Assembly (NCBI GenBank): GCA_965243545.1
Contig: OZ251573.1
Span: 2,246,093 to 2,310,092 of the forward strand
DNA: 64,000 bases
From: Spirochaetia bacterium
GTDB lineage: Bacteria > Spirochaetota > Spirochaetia > SZUA-6 > Bin103
Reading direction: 5' to 3'
Positions 1 to 16,935 of this stretch are shown here, piece by piece. The notes under the pieces were generated by a model. The model searched no databases and was not told the origin of the DNA. It saw only the letters and a program-made list of their open reading frames with translations. Position 1 is the first letter of the stretch. Each line of letters begins with the position of its first letter. A program made the position numbers and the translations under genes.

Positions 1-526
1 GCGCAGCGTCGTTGCCGATCGCGATCAACCGACGCGGCGCCAGCAAGGCGATCAGCCGACCGAGCAACCGTATCCCGGCCTCACGCTCCCGCTTGTTGTG
101 AAATCGATTGCTAAACGGATTACCCGGCTCGTGTGGATGCAGCGGAAATACATTCCACAAGAATACTGTGTGTTCCTGGATTTCAGAAAGGACACGCCAA
201 ACGACAGTCGCCGTCCGTTCCGTATGAACGGCCCCTACCGTAGTTCGTCGAGCCGTAACTCCCCAACGGTTGGCATGGTCTCGAACGCGCACGTCGTCCG
301 TAAACGCAAGTCCCGTACGCCGGCCGCCGCGATAACCCAGATCGCGTCCCAGCCATATTGAATCGACCCCGTCCGCTGCCGCTACTTCCAGAATCCCGAG
401 TAATGTCTCGAACCGCATAATGGCCGCCCGGTCCCGATCGTGCAGTTCGCATTGATCGGAGTACGGATTGAATGAATTTGGAAAACGCAGGCTGCTCAGC
501 TCCTCTACAAACCGAGTGGGTGTCAT
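1..526 (-). CDS. uracil-DNA glycosylase superfamily protein (3' end runs off the window)
   Basis: Absent from the ORF track because the frame is open to position 1. My manual minus-strand translation from ATG (complement of 524-526) reads MTPTRFVEELSSLRFPNSFNPYSDQCELHDRDRAAIMRFETLL...GRDLGYRGGRRTGLAFTDD...FLWNVFPLHPHEPGNPFSNRFHNKRERE...LIAIGNDAA. This resembles the G-x-x-GYRG-x-R-TG-x-FT and WN-FP-HPH...SNR motifs of a bacterial UDG-like family. ATGA start/stop overlap with the upstream gene at 523-526. Confidence 0.5.
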   Translation of the reverse strand, partial: MTPTRFVEELSSLRFPNSFNPYSDQCELHDRDRAAIMRFETLLGILEVAAADGVDSIWLGRDLGYRGGRRTGLAFTDDVRVRDHANRWGVTARRTTVGAVHTERTATVVWRVLSEIQEHTVFLWNVFPLHPHEPGNPFSNRFHNKREREAGIRLLGRLIALLAPRRLIAIGNDAA

Positions 527-1695
527 ACCCATGCTTCCGTCAACGGCCTGAAACATATCGTCCTCCGACTACGGTCACCTACAATGACGCCCCCGTTGTT
601 CGCTCGAACCTTCCTGAAAACTTCATAACCCTGGAGAATAGCCTTCTCCCACAAGAATAGCGGGCATGCTTCGACTTCATATCCTCTCACAAACTGCTGT
701 ACCGTCTTGAGAAGGTCGAACGACAGCGCGTCCCGCGACTCAAAGTAGTCTAACCGTTTGGCGCAAGAGAATATCCAGGCCGTGAGCCCTTCCTCGACCA
801 CAATGGCCCTTCCGCCGTCCTGATCCTCGTCGACTTTGGGGTCGGTCTTGCGTTTACGCTTGATCAACGAGCGAAATGCCGGGGACCAGTGCAGGACCGC
901 TGCGTGCGCCAAATGAAACACGTCATGGAACCGGTAGCCGTCGCTGACCGCAATATTGTCGGTTAGCGGGTCTCCAATGAAGACTCCGTTCCACTGCAGG
1001 TACGTTTGCCCACTCGGTCGTTCGGTAACTTTGATCTCGAAGCGGTCAGGAAAACGCTCGTCCGCAGGGAACCGTTCGTCGAATATCGGCAACTCCGACG
1101 GGGCCGGTTCAAGAAAACGCCCGAAGACCTTGTGAAGGTTCCCGGCCGCAACCGCTCGCAAGTCGAGGTCGGCGGCCCGCAGGGCCACCATGTATCGAAT
1201 CCAGAAACCTCGTAGTAGACCGCCACCATGTGGATCTCGAGCGTCGATTCGGAGTAAGGCCGCGGCCGCTGCTCCCAAGTCCAGAAGCGCCGACGCCAAG
1301 TGCGAATCGCTGATCTCCGGGGCCACAAAAAACCCTTGATCTGAAGTCCGACGAATCGCGGAAATCGTCTGAACGGATTTATGTTCAACGACGGAATCAA
1401 TACAAACGCCCAAACGTCGGCACAAGGTTGTAAAGTACCAGATCACGTCGCCGAATTCTTCCTCAACGGCCTCGTTATACTCCGAACGTGAAGCCTTGTC
1501 ACGAACGCGTTTCTTGAACGCGGCAAGAATGCCTCCCACCTCACCGAACAGCCCCATGAGAACGAGAGTCAGGTCGGCCGGAAGTTGGTCGGTAGGCTCG
1601 ATCTTACGACTGTAGTCCGCGAGAACTGTCGACGGCGCCGTTGCCTCGATCTCGTCCGAATCATTCGCCAGACGAAAACCCGGACGGCGCACCAT
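523..1695 (-). CDS. MazG-like nucleotide pyrophosphohydrolase domain fused to an uncharacterised C-terminal domain
   Basis: ORF track 523..1710. The N-terminal LMGLFGEVGGILAAFKKRVRD...EEEFGDVIWYFTTLCRRLGV looks like the MazG/all-alpha NTP-PPase helix pair. The C-terminal ~230 aa carries the His-rich YRFHDVFHLAHAAVLHW. Preferred start is ATG at 1695 (MVRRPGF), giving a TAATG overlap with the stop of the upstream gene; the track start at 1710 is TTG. Confidence 0.6.
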   Translation of the reverse strand: MVRRPGFRLANDSDEIEATAPSTVLADYSRKIEPTDQLPADLTLVLMGLFGEVGGILAAFKKRVRDKASRSEYNEAVEEEFGDVIWYFTTLCRRLGVCIDSVVEHKSVQTISAIRRTSDQGFFVAPEISDSHLASALLDLGAAAAALLRIDARDPHGGGLLRGFWIRYMVALRAADLDLRAVAAGNLHKVFGRFLEPAPSELPIFDERFPADERFPDRFEIKVTERPSGQTYLQWNGVFIGDPLTDNIAVSDGYRFHDVFHLAHAAVLHWSPAFRSLIKRKRKTDPKVDEDQDGGRAIVVEEGLTAWIFSCAKRLDYFESRDALSFDLLKTVQQFVRGYEVEACPLFLWEKAILQGYEVFRKVRANNGGVIVGDRSRRTICFRPLTEAWV

Positions 1696-2303
1696 TATAG
1701 TTGTCCCCAATCCAATGGCTCACCAAGGAAGCCACGCTCGTCGAGAGACCTGAACCAATCGACGAACGCATCTACCATCGGTTCCGGAAAGAGGCATCTG
1801 TGCCCTGTCCCCGATTTGCAGAGGTCTTTGCCGTCCCAATTTCGGAAACAAGAGGGAATATAAGGACCGGTGCCTCCCCAGTAGGCGAAGGTAAATCCAA
1901 GAAGCACGCTGTCAGCCTTAGTGTCACGTCGTATATTCTGATGGTTTGGCAAACCGTCTTCTAGGCTGTGGTGAGAGTTGCTCTGGCGCCACTGATCATC
2001 CGGGCCGCTATGATAGATGTTGTCGCCGAACCGTTGCTTCATACTGCCACTAAGGTCGGGCTTCTTCAGTTGGAACCGAGAGTCATTCCAGTATTGGTTG
2101 AACGTTATTCTCTCCGCGACGTGCATGACATAGACAAGATTGCTCTGTCTTTTCTTGGTCTTGCTACCGGTACCGACAATCCAGTCTCCGGCTGTGGCTG
2201 ATCTGCGGATTTCGGGCTTGCAGGTTGCCAACGTGCATACCCCGAAAAACGGATTCGGAGCAAATCCGTAATCGCGCGCAACCACATAGGAATACAACCG
2301 CAT
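1695..2303 (-). CDS. Nmad2-like (nucleotide modification associated domain 2) protein
   Basis: The N-terminus MRLYSYVVARDYGFAPNPFFGVCTLATCKPEIRRSATAGDWIVGTGS matches my recollection of the Nmad2 family signature (YSYV..D.GFAPNPF.G.CTLA.CKP.IR...GDWI.G.GS). ATG start with GAGG 5 nt upstream. Confidence 0.5.
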   Translation of the reverse strand: MRLYSYVVARDYGFAPNPFFGVCTLATCKPEIRRSATAGDWIVGTGSKTKKRQSNLVYVMHVAERITFNQYWNDSRFQLKKPDLSGSMKQRFGDNIYHSGPDDQWRQSNSHHSLEDGLPNHQNIRRDTKADSVLLGFTFAYWGGTGPYIPSCFRNWDGKDLCKSGTGHRCLFPEPMVDAFVDWFRSLDERGFLGEPLDWGQL

Positions 2304-2312
2304 GCCTCAGTC

Positions 2313-2789
2313 CTAACGGCAGGTATGTCGGGGGATGGACTGCGACGGACGCGTCGTTCCGTCGTGGTTCTCCCACCCGTTGATCCGACCCTCAATGGCA
2401 TCGATGATACGGTTGCCTCTCCACCCGACCACCGCATCGGCGTACTTCTTCAAGGAATCTGGGATCTCGCCACCTTGTCCGCCGAATTCCCAGACACCAA
2501 CGATCCGTCTATCGTTCTTATGGGCGTATTCGATCTCCCAATCAACCCACTTGCTATCCTTCGTATCGGAGGAAATGTATACTATCAGGGTGCTCGACTG
2601 GCGAATGCGCGGTCCCAGTATCTCGGACTTGATATAGTGTTCGTCATGGGCTTTGTTCGGGTTGTCAGCGGTTATCGAGTAATCCCGCGAGGTCAACCCG
2701 TTGCTCTTGAGCAGGTCCTTGAGCTTCCGGAGCCCCTCGTCGTCTTCGTGAATATGGCTGATGAATACGTTCCTTGTGTTTTTGGCCAT
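2313..2789 (-). CDS. TIR-like domain protein (ThsB/DUF1863-like)
   Basis: NVFISHIHEDDEGLRKLKDLL ... STLIVYISSDTKDSKWVDWEIEYA is the typical bacterial TIR-like pattern (VFIS.h..D at the start, S.WV.WEI with a conserved Glu). Start chosen at ATG 2789 (MAKNTRN), 4 nt after the upstream stop; the track ORF extends to 2831. Confidence 0.7.
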   Translation of the reverse strand: MAKNTRNVFISHIHEDDEGLRKLKDLLKSNGLTSRDYSITADNPNKAHDEHYIKSEILGPRIRQSSTLIVYISSDTKDSKWVDWEIEYAHKNDRRIVGVWEFGGQGGEIPDSLKKYADAVVGWRGNRIIDAIEGRINGWENHDGTTRPSQSIPRHTCR

Positions 2790-2793
2790 CGGA

Positions 2794-3618
2794 TCAGGGG
2801 GCGCCGTCCCGAAGAGTATCCGTGCGACCAAGGCCTCTCAGTATCAGGCCAACAGCTTCGCGAATGTGGGGCGTGTCTGCGAGCTTGCGGTTTTCTTCAT
2901 AGGTGAGCCCATTGTTCAGGCTGTCAGCGCGATAGGTGCAAAACGCCTCGTGCCCATCCCACGCGCCGCGCGGCGTGTCGGAACGAGGCGGGACCACTTC
3001 CAAAATCTCCGCGATGTCGCGAGCGCATCCGCCGAAGCCGCCGACAATGTAGAGCGGCTTGCCGGCATGCAGGGTAAGGAGGGCTTCCTCGGCGATCCCG
3101 GGCATGCTCCCCATGTAGCCTTCTACCCTGCCTCCGAGCACGACCCTGGCCGACGTCTCCCTGAGCATCGTCCGGCGCATCGCGGTTAACGATGTCGCGA
3201 TCTCGTGGTGGTCTTCTACCGGAGTTCCAGGAAACCCGAGGTGCTCCATCTCGATGCCATCTTGCGCAAGACACTTTACTTCCGCCGAGTCTCCCAAGCG
3301 AGCCGAGAGATCGTGATACTCGTCAGGCGTGAGGGCTGCGCAGGCCGGCCAGGGAAGATAGTCGATGACCCCTCGCCGGCCTCGAGACCACGGGGTCCGG
3401 TCGTACCGGCTTACCAGTTCAAAGAGCTGCTCGGCGAATCCACCTCGACGGAGATCACCCCCATAGGCGAGACGGTATCCGAACGCCAAGAGATAGGTCG
3501 CCGTCGTCTCCATCGCCCGAGTCAGGTGGCGATCGGTCATTCCAAGTCGGGACAGATCGCCGCTTTCAGAAATGGAAATCGCTACAGTGGCTAACCACTC
3601 GCTATCTCGGTGCTTCAT
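2794..3618 (-). CDS. SLOG/LOG-like Rossmann-fold domain protein (putative nucleotide-ligand sensor)
   Basis: The Gly-rich pair LGGRVEGYMGSMPGIAEEAL ... GKPLYIVGGFGGCARDIAE resembles the GGxxGxMG and PGGxGTxxE loops of LOG/SLOG domains. ATG 3618 (MKHRDSE) forms a TAATG overlap with the upstream TIR gene stop; the track start at 3639 is GTG. Confidence 0.45.
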   Translation of the reverse strand: MKHRDSEWLATVAISISESGDLSRLGMTDRHLTRAMETTATYLLAFGYRLAYGGDLRRGGFAEQLFELVSRYDRTPWSRGRRGVIDYLPWPACAALTPDEYHDLSARLGDSAEVKCLAQDGIEMEHLGFPGTPVEDHHEIATSLTAMRRTMLRETSARVVLGGRVEGYMGSMPGIAEEALLTLHAGKPLYIVGGFGGCARDIAEILEVVPPRSDTPRGAWDGHEAFCTYRADSLNNGLTYEENRKLADTPHIREAVGLILRGLGRTDTLRDGAP

Positions 3619-4799
3619 TACGCTACCTCCGTCATCCACTGGCTCAGGGTGAGGAATTTGACACCAAGGCTGTCCAGCAACTTGAGTTCGCGTAGACTCA
3701 GCGGCGGGTCAGGATAGACGACCACTGAACCAGCAGGGAAGGACGCCCTGGTATTGACTGCTGTCAGCAACTCCGGCGCGCGCGCTACAAATCTTACGTG
3801 AGGATAAGTTTGGCTCAAGGCAGCAGTGCGGCACCGCCAGAGGAAGTCCTTGAATATCTCGTCAAGAAGGCGGCCAATGACCCGTTCGACGCTGTGGGGC
3901 GGTCGAGGACAGAGCCGGACCACCGGTACGTTGCCGAGGTAGGGAAACGATCGCTCGTCGACGCCTTCGATGCAGTCGGCAACTACTATCGGGCGGTCAC
4001 ACTCCTTCGCAACCAAGACCTCCCGTCCGCACCACTCCCGTGAAGAAAACGAGTCGCTATAAACCACCAGGATTGCGCTTCGCCGGACTTCCTCTTCCAG
4101 AACCCGATCGGGGGGAAACCCTGCGGGTATGGCTGCGACGTCGAGGAAAACAGATAGTTGAACGTCATTGTGTAGCCAATCTCGTATACGCCGTGCTACT
4201 CGTTCGCCGACGCCATCGTGTTTGGAGTGACTCAGAAACACCCGGACCTGCTCAAGCTGATCGGACAACTCGGAGTCTGCCGTCAGCGTCGTTCTCAACA
4301 AACGGCAAGTCGCGTAGGTGACCTCACGGACCAAGCGCTGTGCGCGGTCGTCCCGATCGCCGTCCCATTCGAACCACCGCAGCGCCTGAACGCCGAGCTC
4401 GGTTGCGACGGTGGGTCGTGGTGTCACTGCGACCGGAATCAAGAGTCTATGGAGTTGGTTGGCGGTGCCAGTGCGGCAGCGTTCCGCTTGCTCTCGAACA
4501 TAAGCCGACCACGCAGGGTCGCGCTGAATCTCGTCGCCGATGAGCGCGACGACCACGGCTGGCTCATCCCCGTCCAAAGAAACCGGTACGGGAACCGACG
4601 AGCCCGAAGGTGGGGACGACCACTCGAAGACGCTCACCCCCAACTCTTCGATCGAATAGCGCTCTCTGGTGAAGTGCTCGATGAGATGGCGTGCGGCGAC
4701 CTCCGAATCAGCGCACTGAGGGTGCCAGACTACGTGAAGGGTGACGTAGGGTTCTTCCCAAGACGGCGTATGAGCGGTCGGCGGTTTGGAGGCTGACAC
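3618..4799 (-). CDS. TIR domain protein with an extra N-terminal alpha/beta domain
   Basis: The C-terminal half VRVFLSHSKHDGVGERVARRIRDWL...ILVVYSDSFSSREWCGREVLVAKE is a canonical TIR, with S.WC..E carrying the catalytic-type Glu. The N-terminal ~190 aa (VTLHVVWHPQ...AVVVALIGDE) may be a second degenerate TIR-like fold. GTG start preceded by GAGGAA. Confidence 0.65.
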   Translation of the reverse strand: MSASKPPTAHTPSWEEPYVTLHVVWHPQCADSEVAARHLIEHFTRERYSIEELGVSVFEWSSPPSGSSVPVPVSLDGDEPAVVVALIGDEIQRDPAWSAYVREQAERCRTGTANQLHRLLIPVAVTPRPTVATELGVQALRWFEWDGDRDDRAQRLVREVTYATCRLLRTTLTADSELSDQLEQVRVFLSHSKHDGVGERVARRIRDWLHNDVQLSVFLDVAAIPAGFPPDRVLEEEVRRSAILVVYSDSFSSREWCGREVLVAKECDRPIVVADCIEGVDERSFPYLGNVPVVRLCPRPPHSVERVIGRLLDEIFKDFLWRCRTAALSQTYPHVRFVARAPELLTAVNTRASFPAGSVVVYPDPPLSLRELKLLDSLGVKFLTLSQWMTEVA

Positions 4800-4988
4800 T
4801 GTTCCTCAAACGTGAATGTACGCGCCGGACGCCAATGAATCAAGGGGCGGTCACCGTTCGGTCGTGGCTGCCGTCTCGCCGTCGGCTACGATGATCGCGT
4901 TGGGTCCAACCGTAACGACGGGCACGGCGGCGGTCGACGGTGAACGCCGGCGCCCCGTCGCGCGTGCGTCGACCGCCGCTCGCTACGC

Positions 4989-6092
4989 TCACGCAAAAGC
5001 CGGGCTTGGTGCTCGCAGGCAGACGAGTGGACTACGGGCGGGCGGCAGCGCGGTCTGCCCCGCGGCCTTCATCCGCGAGGCGGTGGTGGTGATGCGTGGC
5101 GCAGACGGAGATTGCCGGGTTCGGCAACGGCGCCCGCTGCCCCGGTCCACGTAGCTGCAGCAGCCCCCATCGCGCTCCCAGACCTGCCGTTTGACTGCGC
5201 CGGGATGGTACGGCCGCGTACCTGCGGCTACGACGGCGCGGCGTGGCGTTGCCAGGCGCATTCCGCCTTCGGCGCCGAAGTGGCGGATCGGGCGGCCGTT
5301 GCGGGCCGCTTCGCTTCCACGGCGCGGGCCGTGCTTGATGTCCGCCTTCACCTTCGCTGGCGAAGTCGTGACCCTTGCCGGCATGACGTCCGTTCGCGCC
5401 GGCGGCGCCGGTTCCTTCGGAGCCGAAGGTTGGTCGCTACGCCGGGCCGCTTCGCTGCCGTTGCGTCACGGTGCTCGGAGTTGCCCGGCGCTTTCGCCGG
5501 CGAAGCCGTGACGCCTGCCGGCACGGGAGGCCGATGCGCCGACTCAGCCGCGTCCGGCCCAGGCGCGTCCTTCGGCACCGAAGTTTCGTTGGCGCCGCGC
5601 GGCGGTCGCGCCGGGTCGTGGCGCTCGACCGCTTCCGTCACCGCGCGCGCCACGATCTGCCCACGTCATGCGCGGATTGACGTGCGACAGCAGCCCCTTG
5701 AGCTGCTCCAACCGAAGCCGGCATTCTTCGGTCGATCACTGCCTTTGAGCTCCCGCCCGCCTCGCGCCCAGTGGCCGTATCCGGTCGACGGGTACCGTCA
5801 GCTCCGGGTCCACGCCGGCCAGCAGGTTCTCTACCTGCCGCGTGCTCTTGCCGGCCGCCTCCCCCACCAGCGCCTGCCGCTCCGCCGCCTGCGCCGGTGA
5901 GCTACCTCGTGTGGCGGCGCGCCGGGGCCGGGCCGATCCGTTGGGCACCGCGGCCGACCGGGCGCCAGCCTGTCCGCCGCGCCCGCCGCCAAGACCATAA
6001 CGGTACCTGCTGATTGAAGACGGCCGAGACCGACCGGCCGGCACCGCAGTGGACGATGTAATGCGACGGTTGTATTCTCGGCGGCATGACAA
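4989..6092 (-). pseudogene. HNH endonuclease gene, decayed copy A (frameshifts plus deletion of the HNH core)
   Basis: Pieces lie in three minus-strand frames: ...AAGKSTRQVENLLAGVDPELTVPVDRIRPL (5736..6092), MARAVTEAVERHDPARPP (5348..5653), AVKRQVWERDGGCCSYVDRGSGRRC (4989..5384). Compared with copy B, about 62 bp encoding ...VVQMDHVLPFALGGS... are missing near 5120. Confidence 0.5.
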
Positions 6093-6757
6093 AGGAAAAG
6101 CATCCGCTTCTACTGGCCGTCGCCGCCGTCTCGCTCGCGGCAGCGCTGGCCGCCTGTGACCAGGCCCCGGCAGCCGGAGCGCCTAGCCCCGTTGCGCCCG
6201 CCGCGCCGGCAGCCGAGGAGCCCGGGCTGCGCACCGAGACGCTGATCGTCGCTATCGTCGCTGAAGATGCGAGTCCGGCCGGGAGTCTGGCCGTCACTCC
6301 AGCCGGCCGCGATGCCGCCACGCAGACCACCGTCACCCCCACCACCACGCTCACCTTCCCGTCCGACTTCGGAACGCCGGTCCGCCACACCGACGAAAGA
6401 GTCCATTTGCACTACGAGTACTCCGCCGCGCTGCCGCACGGCGGCATCACGCGTCGCGTCATCGAGCGTGGCGGCGTCACCCCGTGGACGAGCATCAACG
6501 GCGGCGTCAGCTGGCGCACCGGCGGATTCGAGCTTGGTGGCGGCCTGGCGACGCTCGGCTTCGAGTACCGAGCGGGCGACGCCGAGGATGGGCTCGACGC
6601 CGCCGGCTCGATCACCATTCATCTGTCGGCGTCCGGAGTGGGACCAATCAGTCAGGGCGCAGCACCGGCGCCGAAATACGCCGCCGCCCGAATCCGGGAC
6701 TACCTGCAGAGCAATTCGTTGCTGATTCGCTTCTTCATCGTCACCGACCAGGAGTAG
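6086..6757 (+). CDS. hypothetical lipoprotein
   Basis: MTKEKHPLLLAVAAVSLAAALAAC has a signal peptide plus a lipobox-like LAAC, followed by an Ala/Pro-rich linker. No recognisable catalytic motif. Confidence 0.5.
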   Translation: MTKEKHPLLLAVAAVSLAAALAACDQAPAAGAPSPVAPAAPAAEEPGLRTETLIVAIVAEDASPAGSLAVTPAGRDAATQTTVTPTTTLTFPSDFGTPVRHTDERVHLHYEYSAALPHGGITRRVIERGGVTPWTSINGGVSWRTGGFELGGGLATLGFEYRAGDAEDGLDAAGSITIHLSASGVGPISQGAAPAPKYAAARIRDYLQSNSLLIRFFIVTDQE

Positions 6758-6894
6758 CGGGCGCCGACGGCGGGCTGATGCACCGAGACGATAAAAGTCA
6801 CCGTGCCGCAGTTCACGGCGCGCAGGCCACAGGATCCAGACCAATAGGACGCCGCATTGACACTGCCGGATTTCTTCAATAGGTTTCATTTGAA

Positions 6895-8231
6895 GGCGCT
6901 TCAGGATTTCGTGTGGCCGAGGTAGTCACGGGAGACGCCTGCGGGGTAGAGGTCAAGGCCGCCGAGGTGAAAGTAGATGGCGTTGCGGAACCGTTCCCGA
7001 TTGCGGAATCCACGCGCCATGTACTTCAGCTTCTGCACGCCCCGCGTTGATCGACTCCGCCCGCGCGTTGCTCACCCCTGCACCATCGCCGTCACGATCC
7101 CGTCCAGATGCCGCTTGATCATCCGCGCTACCCGCTTGACCGGCTCCAGCCGACAGCGGATCGCCGACCGATACCACCCCAGCCATTCTTCGCGCGCCAC
7201 TCGCGCGAGCCACCCGTCCACTGCATCATCGCCCATTCCTTGTAGCCCCAGGCGCGGGCGGTCTGTAGCCCGCGGCGGGCGCCCATCGCCTCCAGTCGCT
7301 GCCGGCGCTCGTCATCCAGGTGTTCGGGGTTGGTCAGCCACAGATAGCGGGTGCCCTTCAGCCGATCATCACCGATACGCGATAGCTTGCGGTGCTCGGC
7401 TCGCCGCACCCGGTCAACGGCGTCGCCGAGATGCTTGGCGACGTGGAACTTGTCGAACGCGATCTTGGTGTGCGCGTCCGGCACGTACTCGCCGGTGACC
7501 CGGATGTACGGCTCCCACATGTCCATGGCGACCGTCTCCACATCAGCAAGTCGTTGCCGGTCAAACTGTTGGAAGAACTGCTCCAACGTCTCCTTGCTGC
7601 GCCCATCAGCCACGTGCACCACGTGTCCGTCCAGATCGTTGATCACCGTCACGTACTCATGGCGCTTCTGAAACGACGTCTCGTCCACGCCGATCCACCG
7701 CGGAAGATGCACCTCACGCCGCTGTTTGCCGCGCTGCACCGCGCGCTTCATCACGCCGTCGACCTCGTCCCAACTCAGCCGCATCTGCTGGGCCACCGCC
7801 GCAATCGGGGCGGCCCGCAGCCAGTCGATCACCACCGCCTCGCACAGCGCCGTCAGCCGCGCGCGGTCTTCGGCCCACGGCACCTCGATCTGCAAGACGC
7901 GATGCTGCGGACACCGCACCCGAGGGACCTTGGCGGCCAGAAACGTGCGGTACTGGCAGGTGTCCAGATGCCGCCAGCGGCGCTGCCGGGTGTCGTACTG
8001 GCGAGCGGCGTGCCCGCACTGCGGGCAGCGCACCTCCCCGCCGCCGTGCTCCACGTGCACGACCACCTCGCCCCGTCGAAGGTTCAGATCGACGTCCGCC
8101 ACTCGCCACGGCTCCTTGACGCCCAGAATCCTCGCGTACAGTTCCTTGTCACGCATGGCCCCAGCTTAGCCCTGGCGGGCACGCGCCGTCACCCCTCAGG
8201 TCGCCCGACCCACACGAAACCCGGAAGACCC
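6895..8231 (-). mobile_element. ISL3-family insertion sequence with terminal inverted repeats and 8-bp target site duplication
   Basis: The ends GGCGCTTCAGGATTTCGTGTGG (6895-6916) and the complement of CCACACGAAACCCGGAAGACCC (8210-8231) form an imperfect 22-bp IR. CATTTGAA is present at 6887-6894 and again at 8232-8239. Confidence 0.85.
6901..8156 (-). pseudogene. ISL3 family transposase, frameshifted near the C-terminus
   Basis: The 7128..8156 ORF (MRDKELYARILGVKEPWRV...CPQCGH...RWIGVDETSFQKRHEYVTVINDL...) is ISL3-like. The C-terminus continues in other frames: [12 protein letters not shown] (6953..7213 frame), then [45 protein letters not shown] by my manual translation. One shift lies in a G run near 7005. 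Confidence 0.85.
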
Positions 8232-8234
8232 CAT

Positions 8235-8675
8235 TTGAATAGCGTCAAACTCGGTCCCCGATGGGCATCTCTCGAAGTCTCGTTCGACGAGGCTGACAGG
8301 AATGCTGCTTGGGAGTTGTATATCGAGATGCTGACCCGAATCGTTACGCAACCTCTCTCAACGGAAAGTGGAGACGAAAAGGCAGCACTGGACAGTGTCT
8401 ATTCACTCTTCCCGACGACGCGTGACATTCTGCGCCGATACGGCCGGAAGACTATCCACTTCAGTAAGATAGCCATCCCGATACTGAACCAGGTGGTCCG
8501 ACCGTTTACTGCAAAGTGGCATAGAAGACGCCTGTCAGGATCGTTCAAGAAACCACGCGGCCGCAAGGAGTTCCGTGACGAACTCGCCACTCTGCGCCAG
8601 TCGTTGCGAAACTACAACCGGATGCTGGCGGAGATCGCCGACGTCGAAGACTTGACGGACTTGGAAACCCCGTAG
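8235..8675 (+). CDS. hypothetical helical protein, 5' end or promoter interrupted by the ISL3 insertion
   Basis: This is the in-frame tail of track ORF 7392..8675 (LNSVKLGPRWASLEVSFDEADRNAAWELYIEMLTRIVTQPL...). Removing the IS and one TSD copy joins it in frame to ...DAALTLPDFFNRFH upstream (6848-6894). It ends 9 nt before the TIR gene. Confidence 0.4.
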   Translation: MNSVKLGPRWASLEVSFDEADRNAAWELYIEMLTRIVTQPLSTESGDEKAALDSVYSLFPTTRDILRRYGRKTIHFSKIAIPILNQVVRPFTAKWHRRRLSGSFKKPRGRKEFRDELATLRQSLRNYNRMLAEIADVEDLTDLETP

Positions 8676-8684
8676 GAGGACGCC

Positions 8685-9239
8685 ATGTACGAAACCCCCA
8701 GACACAAAGTGTTTATCAGCTTCCATCATGAAGATCAGAGCTACAAAGACTCCTTCGCTGAGTTGATGGAAAACGACATCGTGGATCGATCGGTCGAGGA
8801 TGGAGACATCGACGACGACAACCTGGCCACTGAGACCATCCGCCAGAGAATTCGTGATGATTTCATTAGTGACGCAACCGTAACCGTTGTGCTCATTGGA
8901 CCTTGTACGTGGCAGCGAAAACACGTCGATTGGGAGATAGGGTCAAGCTTAAGAGCTACGAAACGCAATCCACGATGCGGCTTGCTCGGTATTCTTCTAC
9001 CGAATCATCCGGACTATATGCAAACGAGATGCTTTCTCAAGCGAATACCTCCTAGACTAGCGGATAATGTATCGGGGGGAGATCCATATGCGACTACCTG
9101 CAATTGGAGCTATAGTTCTTCCGATGTCCGCCGCTGGATACATAAGGCCTACGAGCGTAGGTCGGGAATGCCCCCTGACAACAACCGCCACCAGTTCAAG
9201 CGCAATAGGGGTGGCAGCTGCTCGGACGGTTGGGGTTGA
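8685..9239 (+). CDS. ThsB-like TIR domain protein (DUF1863-like)
   Basis: HKVFISFHHEDQSYKDSFAELM...TVTVVLIGPCTWQRKHVDWEIGSSL is the typical ThsB/MTH538-type TIR-like pattern. A strong AGGAGGA lies upstream of the ATG. Confidence 0.7.
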   Translation: MYETPRHKVFISFHHEDQSYKDSFAELMENDIVDRSVEDGDIDDDNLATETIRQRIRDDFISDATVTVVLIGPCTWQRKHVDWEIGSSLRATKRNPRCGLLGILLPNHPDYMQTRCFLKRIPPRLADNVSGGDPYATTCNWSYSSSDVRRWIHKAYERRSGMPPDNNRHQFKRNRGGSCSDGWG

Positions 9240-9240
9240 C

Positions 9241-11123: not shown

Positions 11124-14100
11124 TCAGGCAGTCCCTGCAGCGCGAGTGAGCCAGGCGGCGCCGGGGCGGGCCCAGGCGGACGCGACCACCACCGGCAGGG
11201 CTTGGCGGTCGATCACCGGCAGGCCGTCGGCCGAGCCGCCGGCGATGCACAGCACACGCGCCGCCGCCGCCGCGCCGCGCTGGCATTCGTCCTGCACGGC
11301 GGCGAGCAGGTCGAGCCGGCGGTAGCGCGCCAGCAGACCGGAACGGGTCAGCAGCAGCGGAGCTTCAGCGCCGGCGATCGCATCCTGCAAGCGGGCCGCC
11401 GCCCGCCCGACGAGCTGGTCGAGGCGGCGGTGATCGACGCTGCCCGAAGGCGCCGCGTCGGCGGCGAGCACCACGTTCCAGTCCGCGCCGAGCTCGGCGG
11501 CCAGCGCCCGCATGTGGCGGATCAGCTCGGCCTCCACGCGGAACGCCGCCAACGCGAAGCGGCCGGCCAGATAGCGCTCGACGTGCGCGAAGTAGCGCGC
11601 CGGCACCGACAGCGCCAGGAATCCCTGGGAGCCGATCGTGCGCCGCAGCCGGTCGTCCAGAGCGTCGGCGGCGTACGCCTCCTCCTCCCCGTCTCCGGCC
11701 GGTGAGGACGTGCTGCCGGTCGACCGAGTCGGATGCGGCGTCGGCGCGCGGTACGTCGCCCGCTCCCGGTCCCACACCAGCTTCAACCCGGCGGCATCCA
11801 GCAACGCGTCCAGCCGGGGGTGATCGGGCAGCGGCTCCGCTTCCGGGTAGCGGCCGGCCAGCCGCTCGCGGAGCTGCCGCGCGTTGAGCTCCTTGGGGCC
11901 GAGCAGCGAGCTGGCGCCGAGCTTGACCGCGCGCTCCGCCGGCATCCCGCGCGGGTACAGCTCGCCGCGCGAGGAGAGCGCCGCCCGCTCCGCCGCAAGC
12001 ACCGCCACCCGAAGGCGCCGGTCCGGGGCGAGCGGCGCCATGCCCGGCGGCGGCCCGACCTCGGCGAGCTCCTCCCGCACCCGCGCCGGCGAGGCGAGCG
12101 GGTCGGCGCCGGCGAGCCGGTCGGCGGCCTGACCGAGCCGCCGCACGTAGTCCGCTTGCGCTTCCGGCGCCGCGGTGAGCGCCGGGTCGAGCGCCGGCGT
12201 CGCCAGGATCAGGGAGGCCGCGCCATCGGGATGCGCCACGAACCGGCAACCCCGGCGCTTCCGTTCCGCCTCCAGCGCCGCGGCGGCGACCACGCCGGCC
12301 CGCCGCAAGCGCTCGCTGCCCGACGCCGCCGAACCGCGCGCCGCAGCCAGCGCCGCGGCCAGCTCCTCCCGGGTCATCACGCCGCCGTGCTGCTCCACCA
12401 GCGCCGCGACGGAATCCCGCAACGGCGTCATCCATTTCCCGCCGGCCGGCGTTCCGCGCCCCAGACGCGACGCCAGCAGGTCGATGCTCCAAGCCGCCGG
12501 GTCGGCCGCGGTCCCGTACTCCGCGTCCCCTCCGGTCGTGGTCGAAACCGCCCGCCCGCGCTCGGCAAGGTGCTCGGCCAGCCGTTCCGACAGCGCGCGA
12601 ATCCGTTTGACGATGCGCTGGCCGATGCCCTTGTTGCGGTACAGACGGATGCGCGGCAGCGCGATCAGCTCGGCGACCGTGTGCGCGCCGATCCGCTCCA
12701 GGGCGTTGAGCAGGCGCGGACTCACGCCGAGGTCGGCAAGCGAAGTCGCCTCCGTCACGCCGTCGAACTCCTCCGGCAGATCGCCGTTCTCATCGCCGGA
12801 AGCGGTCACGTCGATCGCCTCGAAACAGCGGAACCAGGCGCGGCGCATCTCCTCCGCGTTGTCGAAGCGGGCGCGATAATCGCGGGCCAGCGCGGTACGG
12901 AAGAACTCGGTCAGCGCCTCCCGCACCGACGGATCGAACGACTCGGCGTCCAGCGAGACCTCCTCGTCGAGCAGCGCCGGATCGCTCTGTCCGTCGCCCC
13001 AACCGGGGAGCTGCCCGGTCGCCATTTCGTGCAGGGTCATGGCCGCGCTGAAGCGTTCGGCGTAGGCGTCCCAGCGCGGCGGCGTGCGCAACGGCAGGAA
13101 CGGGTCACGGTACTGCGGCGTGCCGGCGCGGATGTTGTCGGCCGGCGTATCGGCCAGGGAGAAGTCGAACACCACCAGGCTCAGCGGCGAGCCGGAGACG
13201 CCGATGTTGTCGGGCTTGAGGTCGCGGTGCGACACGCCGTGCTCCTCCAGCCACTGCACCACGTCCATCAGCTGGTCGCCGAAGCGCTGCAGCAGGTCGA
13301 GCGACAGCCGGCCTTCCTCGCGGATGCGGTCGGCCAGGGTGTAGGACCCGCCTCTGCTTTCGGCGCCGGTGCGCGCGCCGGCCAACGCCATGAAGACCGC
13401 GGCGTGGCCCGACAGATCGACCTCGCGGTACGCCTGCACGATGTTGGCGTGGCGCAACGAGCGGAGCAGCCGGCCCTCGCGCCGCACGTGGTCGTTGCGG
13501 GCCGGGTCGAGCGCCACCTTGAGGACGCCGCCGCCGTCCTCCTCATGCTCGACTTGCAGCGCCAGCGCGGTCGCGCCCCTGCCGAGCCGCCGCTTTACCT
13601 GGAATCCGCCTTCCAACCGGTCGTCCGGGCGGGCGTCGAGGGGACGGGCGGGCTTCTCGCGCGGCTCCCGCGCGGCGGCAAGCTCCCGTTCCGCTTTATC
13701 GAGATAGCTGCGGAACTCGGCCGAATCCGGCCGCGCGGAGGCGTCGGGGTCGGTGACGCATGCGACCACCAGCTGCAGCGCCTCGGGCGCGCCGTCGACC
13801 TGATCGGAAAGCATCAGGCCGCGGCTGCCGGCCAGACGGTCATGCAGGGCGGCGACGGTAGGCGCCGGCGGCGCGCCGGCGAAGATCCGATAGGCGATGG
13901 CGCCGAGCGAGAAGATGTCGAGCTTCTGCGGATCGTAGCCGCCCAGTCTCGACTCCGGGGCCAGGTAGACGCCGTCCGCGTCGTCGCCGGCCGGATGGAG
14001 CGTGCTGGCGCCGTTCGCGCCGTGCGCTGCCGTCTGCCAGTCGAAGATCTTCGCCCGCGGCCGTTCCGCGTCCGGGTCCATCACCAGCACGCGCCGCGGA

Positions 14101-15122
14101 CTCAGCGCGCGGTGGTAGAGCCGGCGTTCGTGCGCGTACTGCACGGTCTCCGCCAACTGGCGCACCAGGCCGAGCCGGGTCTCCGGCGGCAAACCGGCGC
14201 CGCGGCGGTCCAGGAAGTGATCCAGCCGCTCCGCGGCCGGATCGTGCTCGAATACGATGGCCGGCCCCTGCTCCGCGACGGTGAGGAGCTCGGCGCGCAG
14301 GATGCCGTCGTGATTGACGCCGTCGAGCAGGCGGTACTCCCGCTCGGCGGCGGCGCGCCGTTCCGCGCGGCCGGCGGCGGACGGCGCCCCCGCCCACGGA
14401 TAGATGCGGACGCGGCGCTTGGACTCCGGCACCGCGACGTGCTGCGCCTCCCAGTCCTGCCACGCGTCGGTCTCCAGCAACAGGCGGCGCAGCACGTAGT
14501 CGGAGACCTGCCGCTGGCGTTGCGAGGGGCGGATGCCGGCCTGCTCCATGGCGCGCGCAATCGCCCGCGACAACGGCGGGTCGATACGCGGCGGCGGACG
14601 CCGGGGGTCGAACCCGGCCGCGCCGCGCAGCACGTCGACGATGGCCGGCTCCCCGGCGGCATGATTCTCCGACAGATACACCCCGGTCCGCGCCAGCCCC
14701 TCCAGCTGGCGCCGCGCCTGCGACAGAAAGACCAGCGGCTCCAGGAACGGCGCGCGCAGCCTGGCGAGCGCGGGCTGCGCCTTGAGCAGAGCGGCCAGCT
14801 TCTTCGCCTTGCGGTTGGCCAGCAGCAGCGGGCTGTCGGTCAGGAACGTCCGGCCCTCCACGGTTCGGCGCCACGTGCTCTGATCGCCGGAGACCACGCC
14901 CCGCCAGCTCTTGATCTCCACCAGGAAGACGTAGTGCAGCGACACCACCAGCAGATCGACTTCGTTGATGCTGCCGTCGTGGGCGATGAACTCGAAGTTC
15001 GACCACGCGCGGAACGGATCGGCGTCCGGAAACCGGGTCTTGAGGTAGTCGAGCGCCTCCCGCTCCCACGCGTATTCCGACGGGGTGATCTCGATCCAGC
15101 GGCGGCCGCTCGCCTTGCGCAT
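11124..15122 (-). CDS. PglW-like protein: NERD domain + pseudokinase + Ser/Thr kinase + helix-hairpin-helix + large C-terminal region
   Basis: NERD-like WEREALDYLK...EVDLLVVSLHYVFLVEIKSW. First kinase-like domain with a degenerate HRALSPRR. Second domain with VLKVALD, HRDLKPDNIGV, DFSLAD and GTPQYRDPF. HhH-like LADLGVSPRLLNALERIGAHTVAELIALP. Start chosen at ATG 15122 (MRKASGRRWIEI); the track ORF extends to 15218. Confidence 0.75.
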   Translation of the reverse strand: MRKASGRRWIEITPSEYAWEREALDYLKTRFPDADPFRAWSNFEFIAHDGSINEVDLLVVSLHYVFLVEIKSWRGVVSGDQSTWRRTVEGRTFLTDSPLLLANRKAKKLAALLKAQPALARLRAPFLEPLVFLSQARRQLEGLARTGVYLSENHAAGEPAIVDVLRGAAGFDPRRPPPRIDPPLSRAIARAMEQAGIRPSQRQRQVSDYVLRRLLLETDAWQDWEAQHVAVPESKRRVRIYPWAGAPSAAGRAERRAAAEREYRLLDGVNHDGILRAELLTVAEQGPAIVFEHDPAAERLDHFLDRRGAGLPPETRLGLVRQLAETVQYAHERRLYHRALSPRRVLVMDPDAERPRAKIFDWQTAAHGANGASTLHPAGDDADGVYLAPESRLGGYDPQKLDIFSLGAIAYRIFAGAPPAPTVAALHDRLAGSRGLMLSDQVDGAPEALQLVVACVTDPDASARPDSAEFRSYLDKAERELAAAREPREKPARPLDARPDDRLEGGFQVKRRLGRGATALALQVEHEEDGGGVLKVALDPARNDHVRREGRLLRSLRHANIVQAYREVDLSGHAAVFMALAGARTGAESRGGSYTLADRIREEGRLSLDLLQRFGDQLMDVVQWLEEHGVSHRDLKPDNIGVSGSPLSLVVFDFSLADTPADNIRAGTPQYRDPFLPLRTPPRWDAYAERFSAAMTLHEMATGQLPGWGDGQSDPALLDEEVSLDAESFDPSVREALTEFFRTALARDYRARFDNAEEMRRAWFRCFEAIDVTASGDENGDLPEEFDGVTEATSLADLGVSPRLLNALERIGAHTVAELIALPRIRLYRNKGIGQRIVKRIRALSERLAEHLAERGRAVSTTTGGDAEYGTAADPAAWSIDLLASRLGRGTPAGGKWMTPLRDSVAALVEQHGGVMTREELAAALAAARGSAASGSERLRRAGVVAAAALEAERKRRGCRFVAHPDGAASLILATPALDPALTAAPEAQADYVRRLGQAADRLAGADPLASPARVREELAEVGPPPGMAPLAPDRRLRVAVLAAERAALSSRGELYPRGMPAERAVKLGASSLLGPKELNARQLRERLAGRYPEAEPLPDHPRLDALLDAAGLKLVWDRERATYRAPTPHPTRSTGSTSSPAGDGEEEAYAADALDDRLRRTIGSQGFLALSVPARYFAHVERYLAGRFALAAFRVEAELIRHMRALAAELGADWNVVLAADAAPSGSVDHRRLDQLVGRAAARLQDAIAGAEAPLLLTRSGLLARYRRLDLLAAVQDECQRGAAAAARVLCIAGGSADGLPVIDRQALPVVVASAWARPGAAWLTRAAGTA

Positions 15123-15216
15123 CGGACGCCCCAGTATAGCCCGGACCGGCGCTCCCGGCCGGCGCGCCCGGCCGGCATGGTAGGCTGGCGGCCATGAGCG
15201 GAGCGGAACCGCGCGC

Positions 15217-16935
15217 ATGATCCAGTTCGACCACTTCTACACCTACCGGGAGATCGGCCAGGTGATGCGCGCGCTGGCCGACGCTCACCCCGCGCTCTGC
15301 CGGGCCGGCGCGATCGGCCGCACGGCCCAGGGCCGCGACATCCAGCTCCTGACGGTCACCGACTTCGACTCCGGCGAGCCGTCCGAGCGGCCCGCCTACC
15401 TGATCCACGGCGGCATCCACGCGCACGAGCCGGCCTCCGCGCACGGGCCGCTGTACACCGCCCATCGCCTGCTTGCCGACCACCGGCCCGGCGGGCTGCT
15501 GTCGCGCGTAGTCCTCTACCTGCTCCCTCGCCTCTGCCCGGACGCCTCCGAGTTCTGCGTGGCGACCACCGCCCGCATCCGCAGCCGCACCGACTTCGAC
15601 AACCGCGCCCCCAACACCATCTACGCCGCCGACCTCGACGGCGACGGCGCGATCCTGACGATCCGCCAGGAGCACCCGGACGGGGATTACGTCTGCGACC
15701 CGGAGGAGCCGCGGCTGCTGGTCGACCGGCGTCCCGCCTCGCCGGGGCCGTACTACCGGGTCTTCCCGGAAGGGCTGATCGAGGACTGGGACGGCTCCGA
15801 CGACATCCGCGTCGGCGGCCTGCACGCCTTCTATCCCGATGCGCCGGAACGGCACGCGGGGCGCAGCTTCGACTTCAACCGCAACTGGTCGCACGACTGG
15901 CGGCACGAAGGCGAACAGCAAGGGGCCGGCGACTACCCGTTCAGCGAACCGGAGATGCGGTCGCTGGCCGCGTTCATCAGCAAGCAGCCCAAGCTGTGCG
16001 GCATTCTGGGCTACCATTGCGGATCGGCGTCGATCATCCGGCCGCCCGCCTGGGGGCCGCGCGAGGACCTGGACGCCGGCGACGACGCGCTGCTCGAGGA
16101 GATCGCCCTGGAGGGGGCCGCGGCGATAGACAGCCCGGCGGTCGCCATGAGCGATCCGGACGGAACCGGCCGCCGCGGCGCCGGCAAGCGCGGCCACGCG
16201 CTCGGCTTTGCCTATCACCAGCTCGGCGTACCGGGTTTCGAGGTGGAGCTCGGCACCATCGTCAACGCCGCCGGCGTGTCGTCGCATGAGTGGCGGGAGC
16301 GGGCGCAGGACCCGGATCAGGTCGACGCCATCTACCGCCGGCTGCTCCGCTGGTGGGACGAAGGCGGGCGCCGGCGCGGGGTGTTCGAGCCGTGGCGGCC
16401 GTTCGACCACCCGCAGCTCGGCCCGGTCGAGCTTGGCGGTCTGCTGTTCACGGCGATCGACAATCCGCTGGTTGCGGCGCTGGAGCCGATGGTCGACGGC
16501 GCCTACCGCTTTACCCGTTCGTTCGCCGAGCGGCATCCGCAGGTGCGGGCCGAGTCGGTCGAGGCGGCCGGCGTGGGCGGCTGCGTCTACCGCATCCGCG
16601 CGCGCATAGCCAACCGCGGGCGGCTGCCGACCAACGTCACCAATCTGGGGCGCGGACTGCCGCGCCTGCAGCCGGTGCGGGCGAGCCTGCAGCCGGCCGG
16701 CGGGGTGGAGCTGCTCTCGGCGCGCGGACACCTCGACCTCGGCCACCTGCGCGCGCTCACCGGCAGCCGCATCGCGGAGTGGTTCGTGCGCGCCGCGGCG
16801 GTCCCGGCCGGGGCGGAGATCGCCGTGATCCGGGTGCTGGGCGGGACCGGCGGCGACACGCGCGTTCCGGTGCGGCGCCCGGACGCCGAAACGACCGAAA
16901 CGGGGGCCGGGACCATGACGGAGGCACGACCATGA
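15217..16935 (+). CDS. M14-family zinc carboxypeptidase-like protein
   Basis: The N-terminal FDHFYTYREI...GRDIQLLTV...YLIHGGIHAHEPAS contains the HxxE zinc motif of M14 peptidases. Confidence 0.65.
   Translation: MIQFDHFYTYREIGQVMRALADAHPALCRAGAIGRTAQGRDIQLLTVTDFDSGEPSERPAYLIHGGIHAHEPASAHGPLYTAHRLLADHRPGGLLSRVVLYLLPRLCPDASEFCVATTARIRSRTDFDNRAPNTIYAADLDGDGAILTIRQEHPDGDYVCDPEEPRLLVDRRPASPGPYYRVFPEGLIEDWDGSDDIRVGGLHAFYPDAPERHAGRSFDFNRNWSHDWRHEGEQQGAGDYPFSEPEMRSLAAFISKQPKLCGILGYHCGSASIIRPPAWGPREDLDAGDDALLEEIALEGAAAIDSPAVAMSDPDGTGRRGAGKRGHALGFAYHQLGVPGFEVELGTIVNAAGVSSHEWRERAQDPDQVDAIYRRLLRWWDEGGRRRGVFEPWRPFDHPQLGPVELGGLLFTAIDNPLVAALEPMVDGAYRFTRSFAERHPQVRAESVEAAGVGGCVYRIRARIANRGRLPTNVTNLGRGLPRLQPVRASLQPAGGVELLSARGHLDLGHLRALTGSRIAEWFVRAAAVPAGAEIAVIRVLGGTGGDTRVPVRRPDAETTETGAGTMTEARP

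Follow-up and report, generated by a model that had tools for sequence, protein, structure and literature searches.

A Thoeris-like TIR–SLOG locus that travels with nucleotide and base enzymes in a Spirochaetia genome

In Thoeris systems, the TIR protein ThsB makes a signal derived from ADP-ribose (ADPR) that is sensed by an effector (10.64898/2025.12.03.692087). Types I to XI are listed in the preprint cited here. Type IX combines ThsB with the effector ThsJ, which is annotated as "TIR and SLOG" (Yirmiya et al. 2025, 10.64898/2025.12.03.692087). The type IX system of Bacillus cereus VD021 protects Bacillus subtilis, and type IX ThsB makes 3'-cyclic ADPR (3'cADPR), yet 3'cADPR alone does not trigger the effector (10.64898/2025.12.03.692087). 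Type III Thoeris, from Pseudomonas aeruginosa, is reported to have several TIR proteins (ThcB1-4) together with a stand-alone SLOG protein, ThcA (van den Berg et al. 2024). Here we describe a block of six genes, G1 to G6, from a Spirochaetia bacterium. The block lies at the start of a 64,000-nucleotide stretch of contig OZ251573.1 (positions 2,246,093 to 2,310,092 of the forward strand), which we call the window. G1 encodes a TIR protein, G2 a SLOG protein, G3 a ThsB-type TIR protein, G4 an Nmad2 protein, G5 a MazG-type nucleoside triphosphate (NTP) pyrophosphohydrolase fused to a MazG_C domain, and G6 a protein of the uracil-DNA glycosylase (UDG) superfamily. This combination of TIR and SLOG proteins with nucleotide and base enzymes is in no catalogued defence system. 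The ensemble is best classed as a so far uncharacterised variant of Thoeris-type TIR signalling, one that includes a conserved module of nucleotide enzymes. We lean towards the view that it is, in outline, a composite Thoeris-like anti-phage system made of two co-travelling modules, A (G1 and G2) and B (G3 to G6).

The six genes are tightly packed on the minus strand (Table 1). G1 and G2 meet in the sequence TAATG (3620-3616), as do G4 and G5 (1697-1693), and G5 overlaps G6 in ATGA (526-523). The stop codon TGA of G2 is separated by 4 nt from the ATG of G3, and the stop codon TAG of G3 by 9 nt from the ATG of G4. A first-pass annotation, made by a model from the sequence letters, had described this packing and the coupling junctions, and all of the junctions are exactly as claimed. 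It had also described an AT-richer block with an abrupt step near position 4800, in agreement with the GC content of 57.8% in positions 1-4799 versus 68.6% in 4800-8240 and 67.2% in 9241-64000. The system carries the same low-GC mark in related genomes (51-59% versus 59-71% in the flanks). A scan of positions 1-5600 for promoters and terminators gave nothing exceeding the shuffled expectation.

The family assignments of the first-pass annotation hold by Pfam, and that of the MazG domain of G5 is supported by a family profile. The Pfam bit scores exceed the cut-offs for TIR_2 in G1 (44.5 versus 28), LD_cluster2 in G2 (221.4 versus 25.3), ThsB_TIR in G3 (79.4 versus 21.2), Nmad2 in G4 (226.5 versus 26.1), MazG_C in G5 (264.6 versus 29.7), and UDG in G6 (26.2 versus 24.3). 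The gene order had been thought to match no named system, and this is borne out: no NCBIfam system model fits the block, and the ThsB models are the sole matches of PADLOC v2 in it, with G2, G4, G5 and G6 unmatched. The labels given to the genes of related blocks by the PGAP annotation pipeline are "TIR domain-containing", "hypothetical", "NTP pyrophosphohydrolase family", and "uracil-DNA glycosylase".

The TIR_2 domain of G1 (residues 187-300; Pfam match at residues 187-278, E = 2.6e-11) is preceded by an N-terminal domain of about 180 residues with an invariant VxWHP motif and followed by a C-terminal extension. The G1 profile matches the TIR domains of plant AtTIR, of Roq1, and of SARM1; a PDB sequence-profile search with the N-terminal domain found no relative. 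The catalytic-type Glu260 (WCxxE, within SREWCGRE) is kept in 102/102 homologous segments, which here and below are those detected by tblastn. G2 belongs to the SLOG cluster 2 family LD_cluster2 (SLOG2; E = 2e-65) and contains no SIR2 domain. Its score against the STALD family is below threshold (E = 0.025, 14.5 bits, cut-off 24), and it has no match among the PADLOC ThsA models. The family comprises 983 homologues, counted as protein clusters, and 24 aligned members share the motifs YGGDLR, MPGIAEE, and GGFGGCxRD without variation. A PDB sequence-profile search with SLOG2 found no relative, and its matches to macro domains (0.01) were spurious. The AlphaFold2 model of G2 (pLDDT 87.6) has as its best PDB match the SLOG domain of BcThsA with 3'cADPR bound (7uxs, E = 5.6e-5, TM 0.66-0.69 on the target). 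The next structural matches are full-length ThsA, and then LOG-type proteins, TRPM channels, and DprA. The closeness of the model to the ThsA SLOG supports a nucleotide-binding fold of the Thoeris sensor type. We propose that G2 is the receptor for a TIR-made nucleotide signal.

The neighbourhood of G2 was examined in a SLOG2-anchored sample of 80 genome loci by tblastn, clustering of open reading frames (ORFs), and Pfam searches with cluster representatives. A G1-type gene lies directly 5' of the SLOG2 gene in 76/81 loci. In one locus (L086) and in at least 80 protein clusters, G1 and G2 form a single TIR_2+LD_cluster2 polypeptide of about 685 residues. Such fusions are also encoded on a Gloeothece plasmid and a Priestia megaterium plasmid, and G1 in its entirety, the N-terminal domain included, can be aligned with the Priestia fusion (4e-44). 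The adjacency and the fusions indicate that G1 and G2 are a split TIR–SLOG protein, of which G1 is proposed to be the NADase half. The first-pass annotation had noted that the SLOG protein is not fused to a SIR2, Macro, or TM effector; it does have a partner, through its obligate pairing with the G1 TIR. A gene of about 199 residues from the ThsB_TIR family, called c2, lies just 5' of G1 or just 3' of SLOG2 in 52 loci. It adjoins the Priestia fusion, and is sometimes itself fused to SLOG2 (L021, L022, L028, L032; P0102). Further small TIR genes, c27 and c36, occur near G1-G2. Altogether, the intact G1-G2 pairs flanked by 1.5 kb or more on each side number 76, and the loci of 72 of them contain at least one small ThsB-type TIR gene; in 18 of these 72 loci, G3 is the sole such gene.

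The small TIR proteins and G1 were compared by BLAST with the TIR domains in Table S1 of 10.64898/2025.12.03.692087. G3 is closest to the type VIII ThsB of Yersinia enterocolitica (36.5% identity, 8e-21) and also resembles types IV and IX. A representative of c2 (L045) is closest to the type VI ThsB (39% identity, 3e-28), and c27 to the type IX ThsB of Paenibacillus macerans (46% identity, 6e-30). G1 has no significant similarity to any of these TIR domains, including TIR4 of type III. The locus is like type IX Thoeris in that one or more small ThsB TIR proteins stand beside a TIR + SLOG effector, whose parts are coupled here by TAATG and fused elsewhere; the TIR–SLOG2 fusion on the Bacillaceae plasmid, with its adjoining ThsB, has the same layout. 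Unlike in type IX, the effector is split into two genes, and G1 has the additional N-terminal domain. The block also adds at least four enzymes, namely Nmad2, MazG–MazG_C, UDG-like and thymidylate-kinase-like (Tmk-like) proteins, none of which are described for type IX; Nmad2 and MazG are not mentioned in the preprint or its supplements (10.64898/2025.12.03.692087). Module A thus has the type IX architecture in a split form, and it is likely to belong to the ThsJ family.

Type III Thoeris resembles the locus in having several TIR proteins and a stand-alone SLOG without a fused enzymatic effector, and ThcB4 is similar to G1 in its length and in the position of its TIR domain. The two differ in their SLOG and TIR families, and no nucleotide-enzyme module is reported for type III. 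Membership of type III is excluded by the NCBIfam scores, which are far below the cut-offs for both G2 against ThcA (19.4 bits, cut-off 110) and G1 against ThcB4 (24.1 bits, cut-off 220). With type I, whose effector ThsA (SIR2–SLOG) is activated by 3'cADPR, the locus shares the logic of a ThsB-type TIR and a SLOG sensor, and the G2 model is nearest to the SLOG of ThsA. In contrast to type I, SIR2 is missing, the SLOG belongs to LD_cluster2 rather than STALD, and the presumed killing TIR is encoded by a neighbouring gene. Type I was therefore rejected, given the lack of SIR2, the STALD score below its cut-off, and the lack of a PADLOC ThsA match.

Module B begins with G3, which consists of a TIR domain only (ThsB_TIR, E = 2.8e-22) and matches the PADLOC ThsB model PDLC00418 over its full length (2.4e-58). 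Its Glu85, in the context WVDWEIE, is kept in 102/102 homologous segments, so that both of the glutamate contexts pointed out in the first-pass annotation are present, with invariant glutamates. G3 is the putative producer of the signal. G4 matches the Nmad2 family (E = 3e-67) and has 2562 homologues (protein clusters), with about 60% identity to G4 among the matches that were listed and aligned; 25 aligned sequences share the motifs GFAPNPF, CTLATCKP, FGDNIY, and DSHHS with little or no variation. The AlphaFold2 model of G4 (pLDDT 85.4) has weak Foldseek matches in the PDB (E = 0.1-3, TM 0.35-0.49), and the top 36 or so are mostly PUA-like readers of modified bases, namely ASCH proteins, EVE/THYN1 proteins with 5-methylcytosine DNA, YTH proteins, and the N-terminal domain of McrB. 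In the BFVD library of viral models, the best match has a value of 0.018, and EVE and ASCH proteins are among the matches. The fold of Nmad2 is probably PUA-like, of the ASCH/EVE/YTH type, which we treat as a lead rather than a result. G4 may be a binder or processor of a base or nucleotide, possibly a modified one.

In G5, an all-alpha NTP pyrophosphohydrolase domain of the MazG type (residues ~25-110, motif EEEFGD) is fused to MazG_C (residues 201-384, E = 5.5e-79), which contains the invariant motifs YRFHDVFH and DGGRA..EEG. The N-terminal domain is below the Pfam cut-offs for MazG (14.4 versus 22 bits) and MazG-like (17.3 versus 27 bits), and its family profile matches iMazG (2q5z, 3e-6) and the dCTP pyrophosphatase DCTPP1 (2.7e-4). 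For MazG_C, a PDB sequence-profile search found no relative. Residues E79, E80, and D83 are kept in at least 60 of 61 segments, and H257, D258, and H261 in 69/69. The match of G6 to the UDG family (E = 9.4e-06) is just above the gathering score, and its full-length homologue in the related locus L007 reaches 2.1e-06. G6 has an unusual motif A, WxGRDLGYRGGRRTG, and the family alignment contains motif B as VRHPSYGG; D62 and H130 are kept in 44/44 segments. The best PDB match of the family profile, a weak one, is the family-4 UDG 4zbx (0.029).

Among the described systems closest to the locus, the PUA–Calcineurin-CE–HAD systems and the rare PUA–MazG–HAD systems sense N6-methyl-dAMP (m6-dAMP) and deplete deoxynucleoside triphosphates (dNTPs) (10.64898/2026.01.15.699771). 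They resemble the locus in combining a PUA-like reader of modified nucleotides with an NTP-degrading enzyme, MazG included, with TIR effectors elsewhere. They differ from it in that Nmad2 is a separate family with weak fold evidence, that the locus has no HAD or calcineurin-like partner, and that module B is tied to TIR–SLOG. Brig1, an antiviral DNA glycosylase, belongs to the UDG superfamily and is encoded close to ThsA-like genes within defence islands (Hossain et al. 2024, PMC11078745), and its best structural relative is the family-4 UDG of Sulfolobus tokodaii, 4ZBY (PMC11078745). G6 shares with Brig1 the superfamily and, by a weak profile match, an S. tokodaii UDG as the nearest PDB relative. 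Brig1 acts alone, whereas G6 is always found in a ThsB–Nmad2–MazG block, where a kinase can take its place. Thymidine hypermodification in phages uses a 5-hydroxymethyldeoxyuridine (5-hmdU) DNA kinase (PMC5889632, PMC8989533). A protein with the helical domain of this kinase family (HMUDK_hel) replaces G6 in half of the related loci, and MazG-, dCTP-deaminase- and thymidylate-kinase-like genes occur as in phage nucleotide toolkits. In contrast to the phage pathways, the system is cellular rather than phage-borne and has no hydroxymethylase or transferases; the window contains the UDG-like gene and no HMUDK, hydroxymethylase, or transferase gene. A search of 50,697 phage records in GenBank gave no match to Nmad2. 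The family is present on 19 plasmids, and the blocks on 13 IMG/VR contigs are of the same cellular type. An origin in phages, or a hypermodification cassette of the phage kind, was rejected because Nmad2 is absent from these phage records and the IMG/VR blocks are cellular in type.

The division into two modules is based on the linkage of the genes in an Nmad2-anchored sample of 4 genome places and 80 metagenome loci, in addition to the SLOG2-anchored one. G3 lies directly 5' of G4 in all 64 loci with room for it, and G5 is present in 15 of the 17 Nmad2 loci with at least 5 kb on each side. Either a UDG-like protein or a kinase fills the last slot of module B; the kinase contains the helical domain of the 5-hmdU DNA kinases (HMUDK_hel, PF18723, 2e-108). 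Among the loci of at least 8 kb, 17 have the UDG-like gene, 17 the HMUDK-type kinase gene, none both, and 3 neither. G1-G2 are in the same locus in 14 of the 17 Nmad2 loci flanked by at least 5 kb on each side (82%), and in 21/26 at 3 kb or more. The G1 and G2 proteins of these loci have only 25-40% identity to those of the window, which shows that the linkage of A and B is old and broad. Twenty-five sampled loci contain all six genes, in no fewer than four arrangements: G3-G4-G5-G6-G1-G2 in eight, the order of the window (G1-G2-G3-G4-G5-G6) in four (three Spirochaetia metagenome-assembled genomes (MAGs) and one proteobacterial MAG), a divergent arrangement with G2/G1 against G3-G6 in four, and others in nine. 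The shuffled order of the blocks identifies two rigid modules rather than one fixed six-gene operon. The six genes put forward in the first-pass annotation are present, and they are co-conserved across phyla; the idea of a fixed order has to be given up. The two TIR proteins that it placed on either side of a SLOG are both real, and are of different kinds: G1 is the partner of the SLOG, and G3 is a ThsB-type TIR locked to Nmad2.

Optional genes near module B encode thymidylate-kinase-like, dCTP-deaminase-like, and radical-SAM proteins, and an 865-residue patatin-like protein, whose N-terminus is a domain also encoded by ORF X of the window (Table 1). A plasmid of Parabacteroides distasonis (L184, 7514-12156) carries a variant of module B with genes for ThsB, Nmad2, an HMUDK-type kinase, a radical SAM/SPASM protein, and a 521-residue protein, and no MazG, UDG-like, or TIR–SLOG gene nearby. 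The 22.6-kb Gloeothece plasmid pP742404 (L183, NC_011732.1) encodes a patatin-like protein, an HMUDK-type kinase, MazG, ThsB, and Nmad2, and its fused TIR–SLOG2 gene lies just past the origin of the record. The genomic setting of the modules is that of defence islands. In about 14 loci, the G1-G2-ThsB trio is located between hsdM-hsdS and hsdR of a type I restriction–modification system. In an Alcaligenes locus the trio is Tn7-like cargo, and on the Cupriavidus plasmid pRK1-2 the block is found among SIR2, TIR, and CapV-like genes. Both this setting and the Thoeris-like logic agree with the candidate defence system of the first-pass annotation.

Based on the families, predicted folds, conserved residues, and linkage of the six genes, a mechanism can be proposed, although every step beyond these four kinds of evidence is our inference. 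Upon infection, a ThsB-type TIR, G3 in the window and c2 in simpler relatives, would make a nucleotide signal. SLOG2 would bind the signal and switch on the TIR of G1, which would cleave nicotinamide adenine dinucleotide (NAD+), so that the infected cell stops growing (abortive infection). Module B, probably together with the Tmk-like protein, may read or process nucleotides or bases that arise during infection, possibly modified pyrimidines. In this way, module B may gate the production of the signal by G3, or form a second effector arm that hydrolyses dNTPs or excises bases from phage DNA, or do both. A role for modified pyrimidines is suggested by the alternation of the UDG-like protein with the HMUDK-type kinase, the house-cleaning-like MazG, and the apparently PUA-like Nmad2; the relatives of the UDG-like protein and of the kinase that have been studied act on uracil or hydroxymethyl-uracil in DNA. 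Nucleotide-pool hydrolysis or base excision, the output proposed in the first-pass annotation, is no likelier than the cleavage of NAD+ by G1. A more specific reading, which we regard as less likely than not, is that module B is a new input stage, in which Nmad2, MazG, and the UDG-like protein or 5-hmdU-type kinase detect or generate a modified nucleotide or base specific to infection, for example hydroxymethyl-pyrimidine nucleotides or phage DNA containing them. The attached ThsB would thereby be licensed to fire interchangeable effectors, either TIR–SLOG or the X-domain patatin.

Several points weigh against a single composite system with these roles. The likeness of G1 and G2 to type IX is one of architecture and of ThsB relatives, and the NCBIfam scores of the two proteins against ThcA and ThcB4 are low. 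SLOG2 might be an enzyme instead of a passive sensor, because the invariant MPGIAEE (of the LOG-like PGxxEE type) and GGFGGC motifs are kept. The PUA-like assignment of Nmad2 leans on weak Foldseek scores, with E of 0.1 or more against the PDB. Our literature search found no experiment on any member and no named system. Furthermore, about 75% of the A-anchored loci do not contain module B and then have their own ThsB (c2), and about 18% (3/17) of the well-flanked module B loci do not contain module A, some of them adjoining X-domain patatin-like proteins. The modules could therefore be separate systems that merely synergise: a Thoeris-like system of TIR, SLOG, and ThsB, and a neighbouring ThsB–Nmad2–MazG–UDG/kinase system with its own effectors, namely dNTP hydrolysis, base excision, or the patatin. 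Their adjacency would then result from the clustering of defence islands or from synergy, with no common signal. That the blocks keep their internal order and shuffle relative to each other fits such independence. We nevertheless consider two independent systems unlikely, since module A is within reach in most of the well-flanked Nmad2 loci, across module A proteins as diverged as 25-40% identity. In addition, 18 loci offer G1-G2 no small ThsB-type TIR other than G3, and the boundary between the modules is a 4-nt gap inside one operon, both in the window and in its relatives.

Two further explanations seem improbable to us. The locus could encode a pathway of nucleotide or DNA modification, salvage, or sanitation, in which the TIR and SLOG proteins are N-glycosidase-type enzymes; TIR, SLOG, and UDG proteins all cleave or otherwise handle N-glycosidic bonds (PMC9503650). 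Such a pathway would be made up of the kinase, MazG, the UDG-like protein, and Nmad2, and would serve salvage or the modification of the cell's own DNA. The Pfam names "nucleotide modification associated domain" and "5-hmdU DNA kinase" imply such a role, and the optional thymidylate-kinase-like, dCTP-deaminase-like, and radical-SAM genes nearby would suit it. However, Nmad2 is absent from the phage records, where hypermodification pathways live, the set has no conserved enzyme that modifies bases, be it a hydroxymethylase, a transferase, or another, and there is no cognate restriction partner. The patchy, low-GC, island-like distribution, with insertion into restriction–modification operons, Tn7 cargo, and plasmids, argues in the same direction, as does the grouping of G3, c2, and c27 with experimentally validated signalling ThsB proteins. 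The missing phage Nmad2 and the lack of a conserved base-modifying enzyme also disfavour a modification cassette guarded by TIR proteins, which the first-pass annotation had offered as its alternative. Module B might instead tailor or clear the signal for module A, with an ADPR-type precursor made by G3 being converted to the SLOG2 ligand by MazG, Nmad2, and the UDG-like protein or kinase, or being degraded by them to forestall self-activation. The failure of 3'cADPR to activate the TIR–SLOG effector of type IX, which suggests another or an additional molecule, speaks for this option (10.64898/2025.12.03.692087), as do the tight tie of B to A and the expectation that MazG enzymes, which cleave pyrophosphate bonds, could act on those of ADPR derivatives. 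We give signal tailoring little credence, because most module A systems lack module B and are yet conserved with a plain ThsB, and in the PDB the MazG domain of G5 is nearest to house-cleaning enzymes of (d)NTPs. The UDG-like and HMUDK-type kinase families, where studied, act on DNA (PMC5889632, PMC8989533, PMC11078745).

The proteins themselves were delineated computationally before, as is evident from the existence of the Pfam family names, which imply that the links of these families to TIR contexts and to those of nucleotide modification had been noticed. The families LD_cluster2, Nmad2, MazG_C, and HMUDK_hel were reportedly defined in comparative genomics papers of the Aravind laboratory from 2013 and 2015. 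Our literature search found no mention of Nmad2, PF18163, PF18753, or PF18722 in the present sense, and no experiment on a combination of TIR, SLOG, and MazG. The word "undescribed" in the first-pass annotation is consequently apt with regard to experiments and to a named system, and too strong with regard to the protein families, which are already in Pfam. Its core idea was largely right.

The operon of the window very probably runs beyond position 1, because a thymidylate-kinase-like gene directly follows G6 in the three nearest relatives (L005, 13712-14356; L006, 13778-14389; L007, 13791-14411). The six genes delimited in the first-pass annotation are real, and the block is probably longer than it stated. 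The window is syntenic with the Spirochaetia MAG OZ251575 (L005), in which the six-gene block is 74-80% identical. There, the Tmk-like gene is followed by genes for an MmeI-type methyltransferase and for a protein with TIR and ORC/CDC6-like parts. The NERD–double-kinase gene of the window has 86% DNA identity to the gene that flanks the system in OZ251575, and may itself be a defence gene. A repeat of about 85 nt is common to the window (11128-11232) and L005 (8358-8444 and 8616-8695).

The second low-GC patch of the window, positions 8241-9240 (GC 53%, low like the operon), contains a second ThsB-type TIR gene, of the c2 type, and ORF X just 5' of it. The window c2 has 60-69% identity to the ThsB gene or fused domain beside SLOG2 in other phyla (L032, L021, L022, and L028). 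X has no Pfam or PADLOC match; its homologues lie directly 5' of c2 in L022 (69% identity) and 5' of G3 in L108, L136, L158, and L168. An ISL3-family transposase gene is located in the high-GC DNA between the operon and X/c2, and the 5' end of X is probably clipped at the boundary of the insertion sequence, with about ten N-terminal codons lost. X and c2 are absent from the closest six-gene relatives. They may therefore be the remains of a second, simpler system, and their link to the operon is uncertain; c2 probably belongs to the same island and not to the operon. Next to the operon, the first-pass annotation had seen a decayed HNH element. VWERDGGCCSY is indeed a motif of the ORF in question, yet Pfam searched up to E <= 1 gave no match to it, so this assignment is not sustained. 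The high-GC stretch between the two low-GC patches also contains an ORF with a lipoprotein-type signal peptide (...LAACDQ) and no family match.

Table 1. Positions of the six-gene block and of other features in the window.
Feature	Position	Strand	Description
G1-G6	1-4799	-	Six tightly packed genes
G1	3618-4799	-	393 aa; GTG start, GAGGAA just 5'
G2	2794-3618	-	274 aa; start overlaps G1 stop (TAATG)
G3	2313-2789	-	158 aa
G4	1695-2303	-	202 aa
G5	523-1695	-	390 aa
G6	1-526	-	Open at window edge; 175 of ~236 aa inside window
ORF with VWERDGGCCSY	4989-5384	-	
ORF with signal peptide	6086-6757	+	
ISL3-family transposase	7128-8156	-	DDE_Tnp_ISL3, 1.6e-45
ORF X	8244-8675	+	~143 aa; just 5' of c2
c2-type ThsB TIR	8685-9239	+	184 aa; Pfam ThsB_TIR, 4.9e-19
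NERD–double kinase	11124-15218	-	1364 aa; NERD and two protein-kinase domains

Bacteria, plants, and animals all use TIR signalling in immunity, and further Thoeris types continue to be catalogued. The ensemble described here is spread over many phyla, with SLOG2 counting 983 protein clusters and Nmad2 2562, and PADLOC recognises only its ThsB proteins. If module B is an input stage, what this Thoeris system senses would be the chemistry of nucleic acids and not a phage protein, and this could account for the failure of 3'cADPR alone to trigger the type IX effector. The strict alternation of the UDG-like protein with the 5-hmdU-type kinase is a sharp clue to the substrate. Study of the system may yield a new messenger derived from TIR activity or from nucleotides, and a mechanism for the sensing of modified phage nucleotides. 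It may also reveal what three orphan families do, namely Nmad2, MazG_C, and the G1 N-terminal domain.

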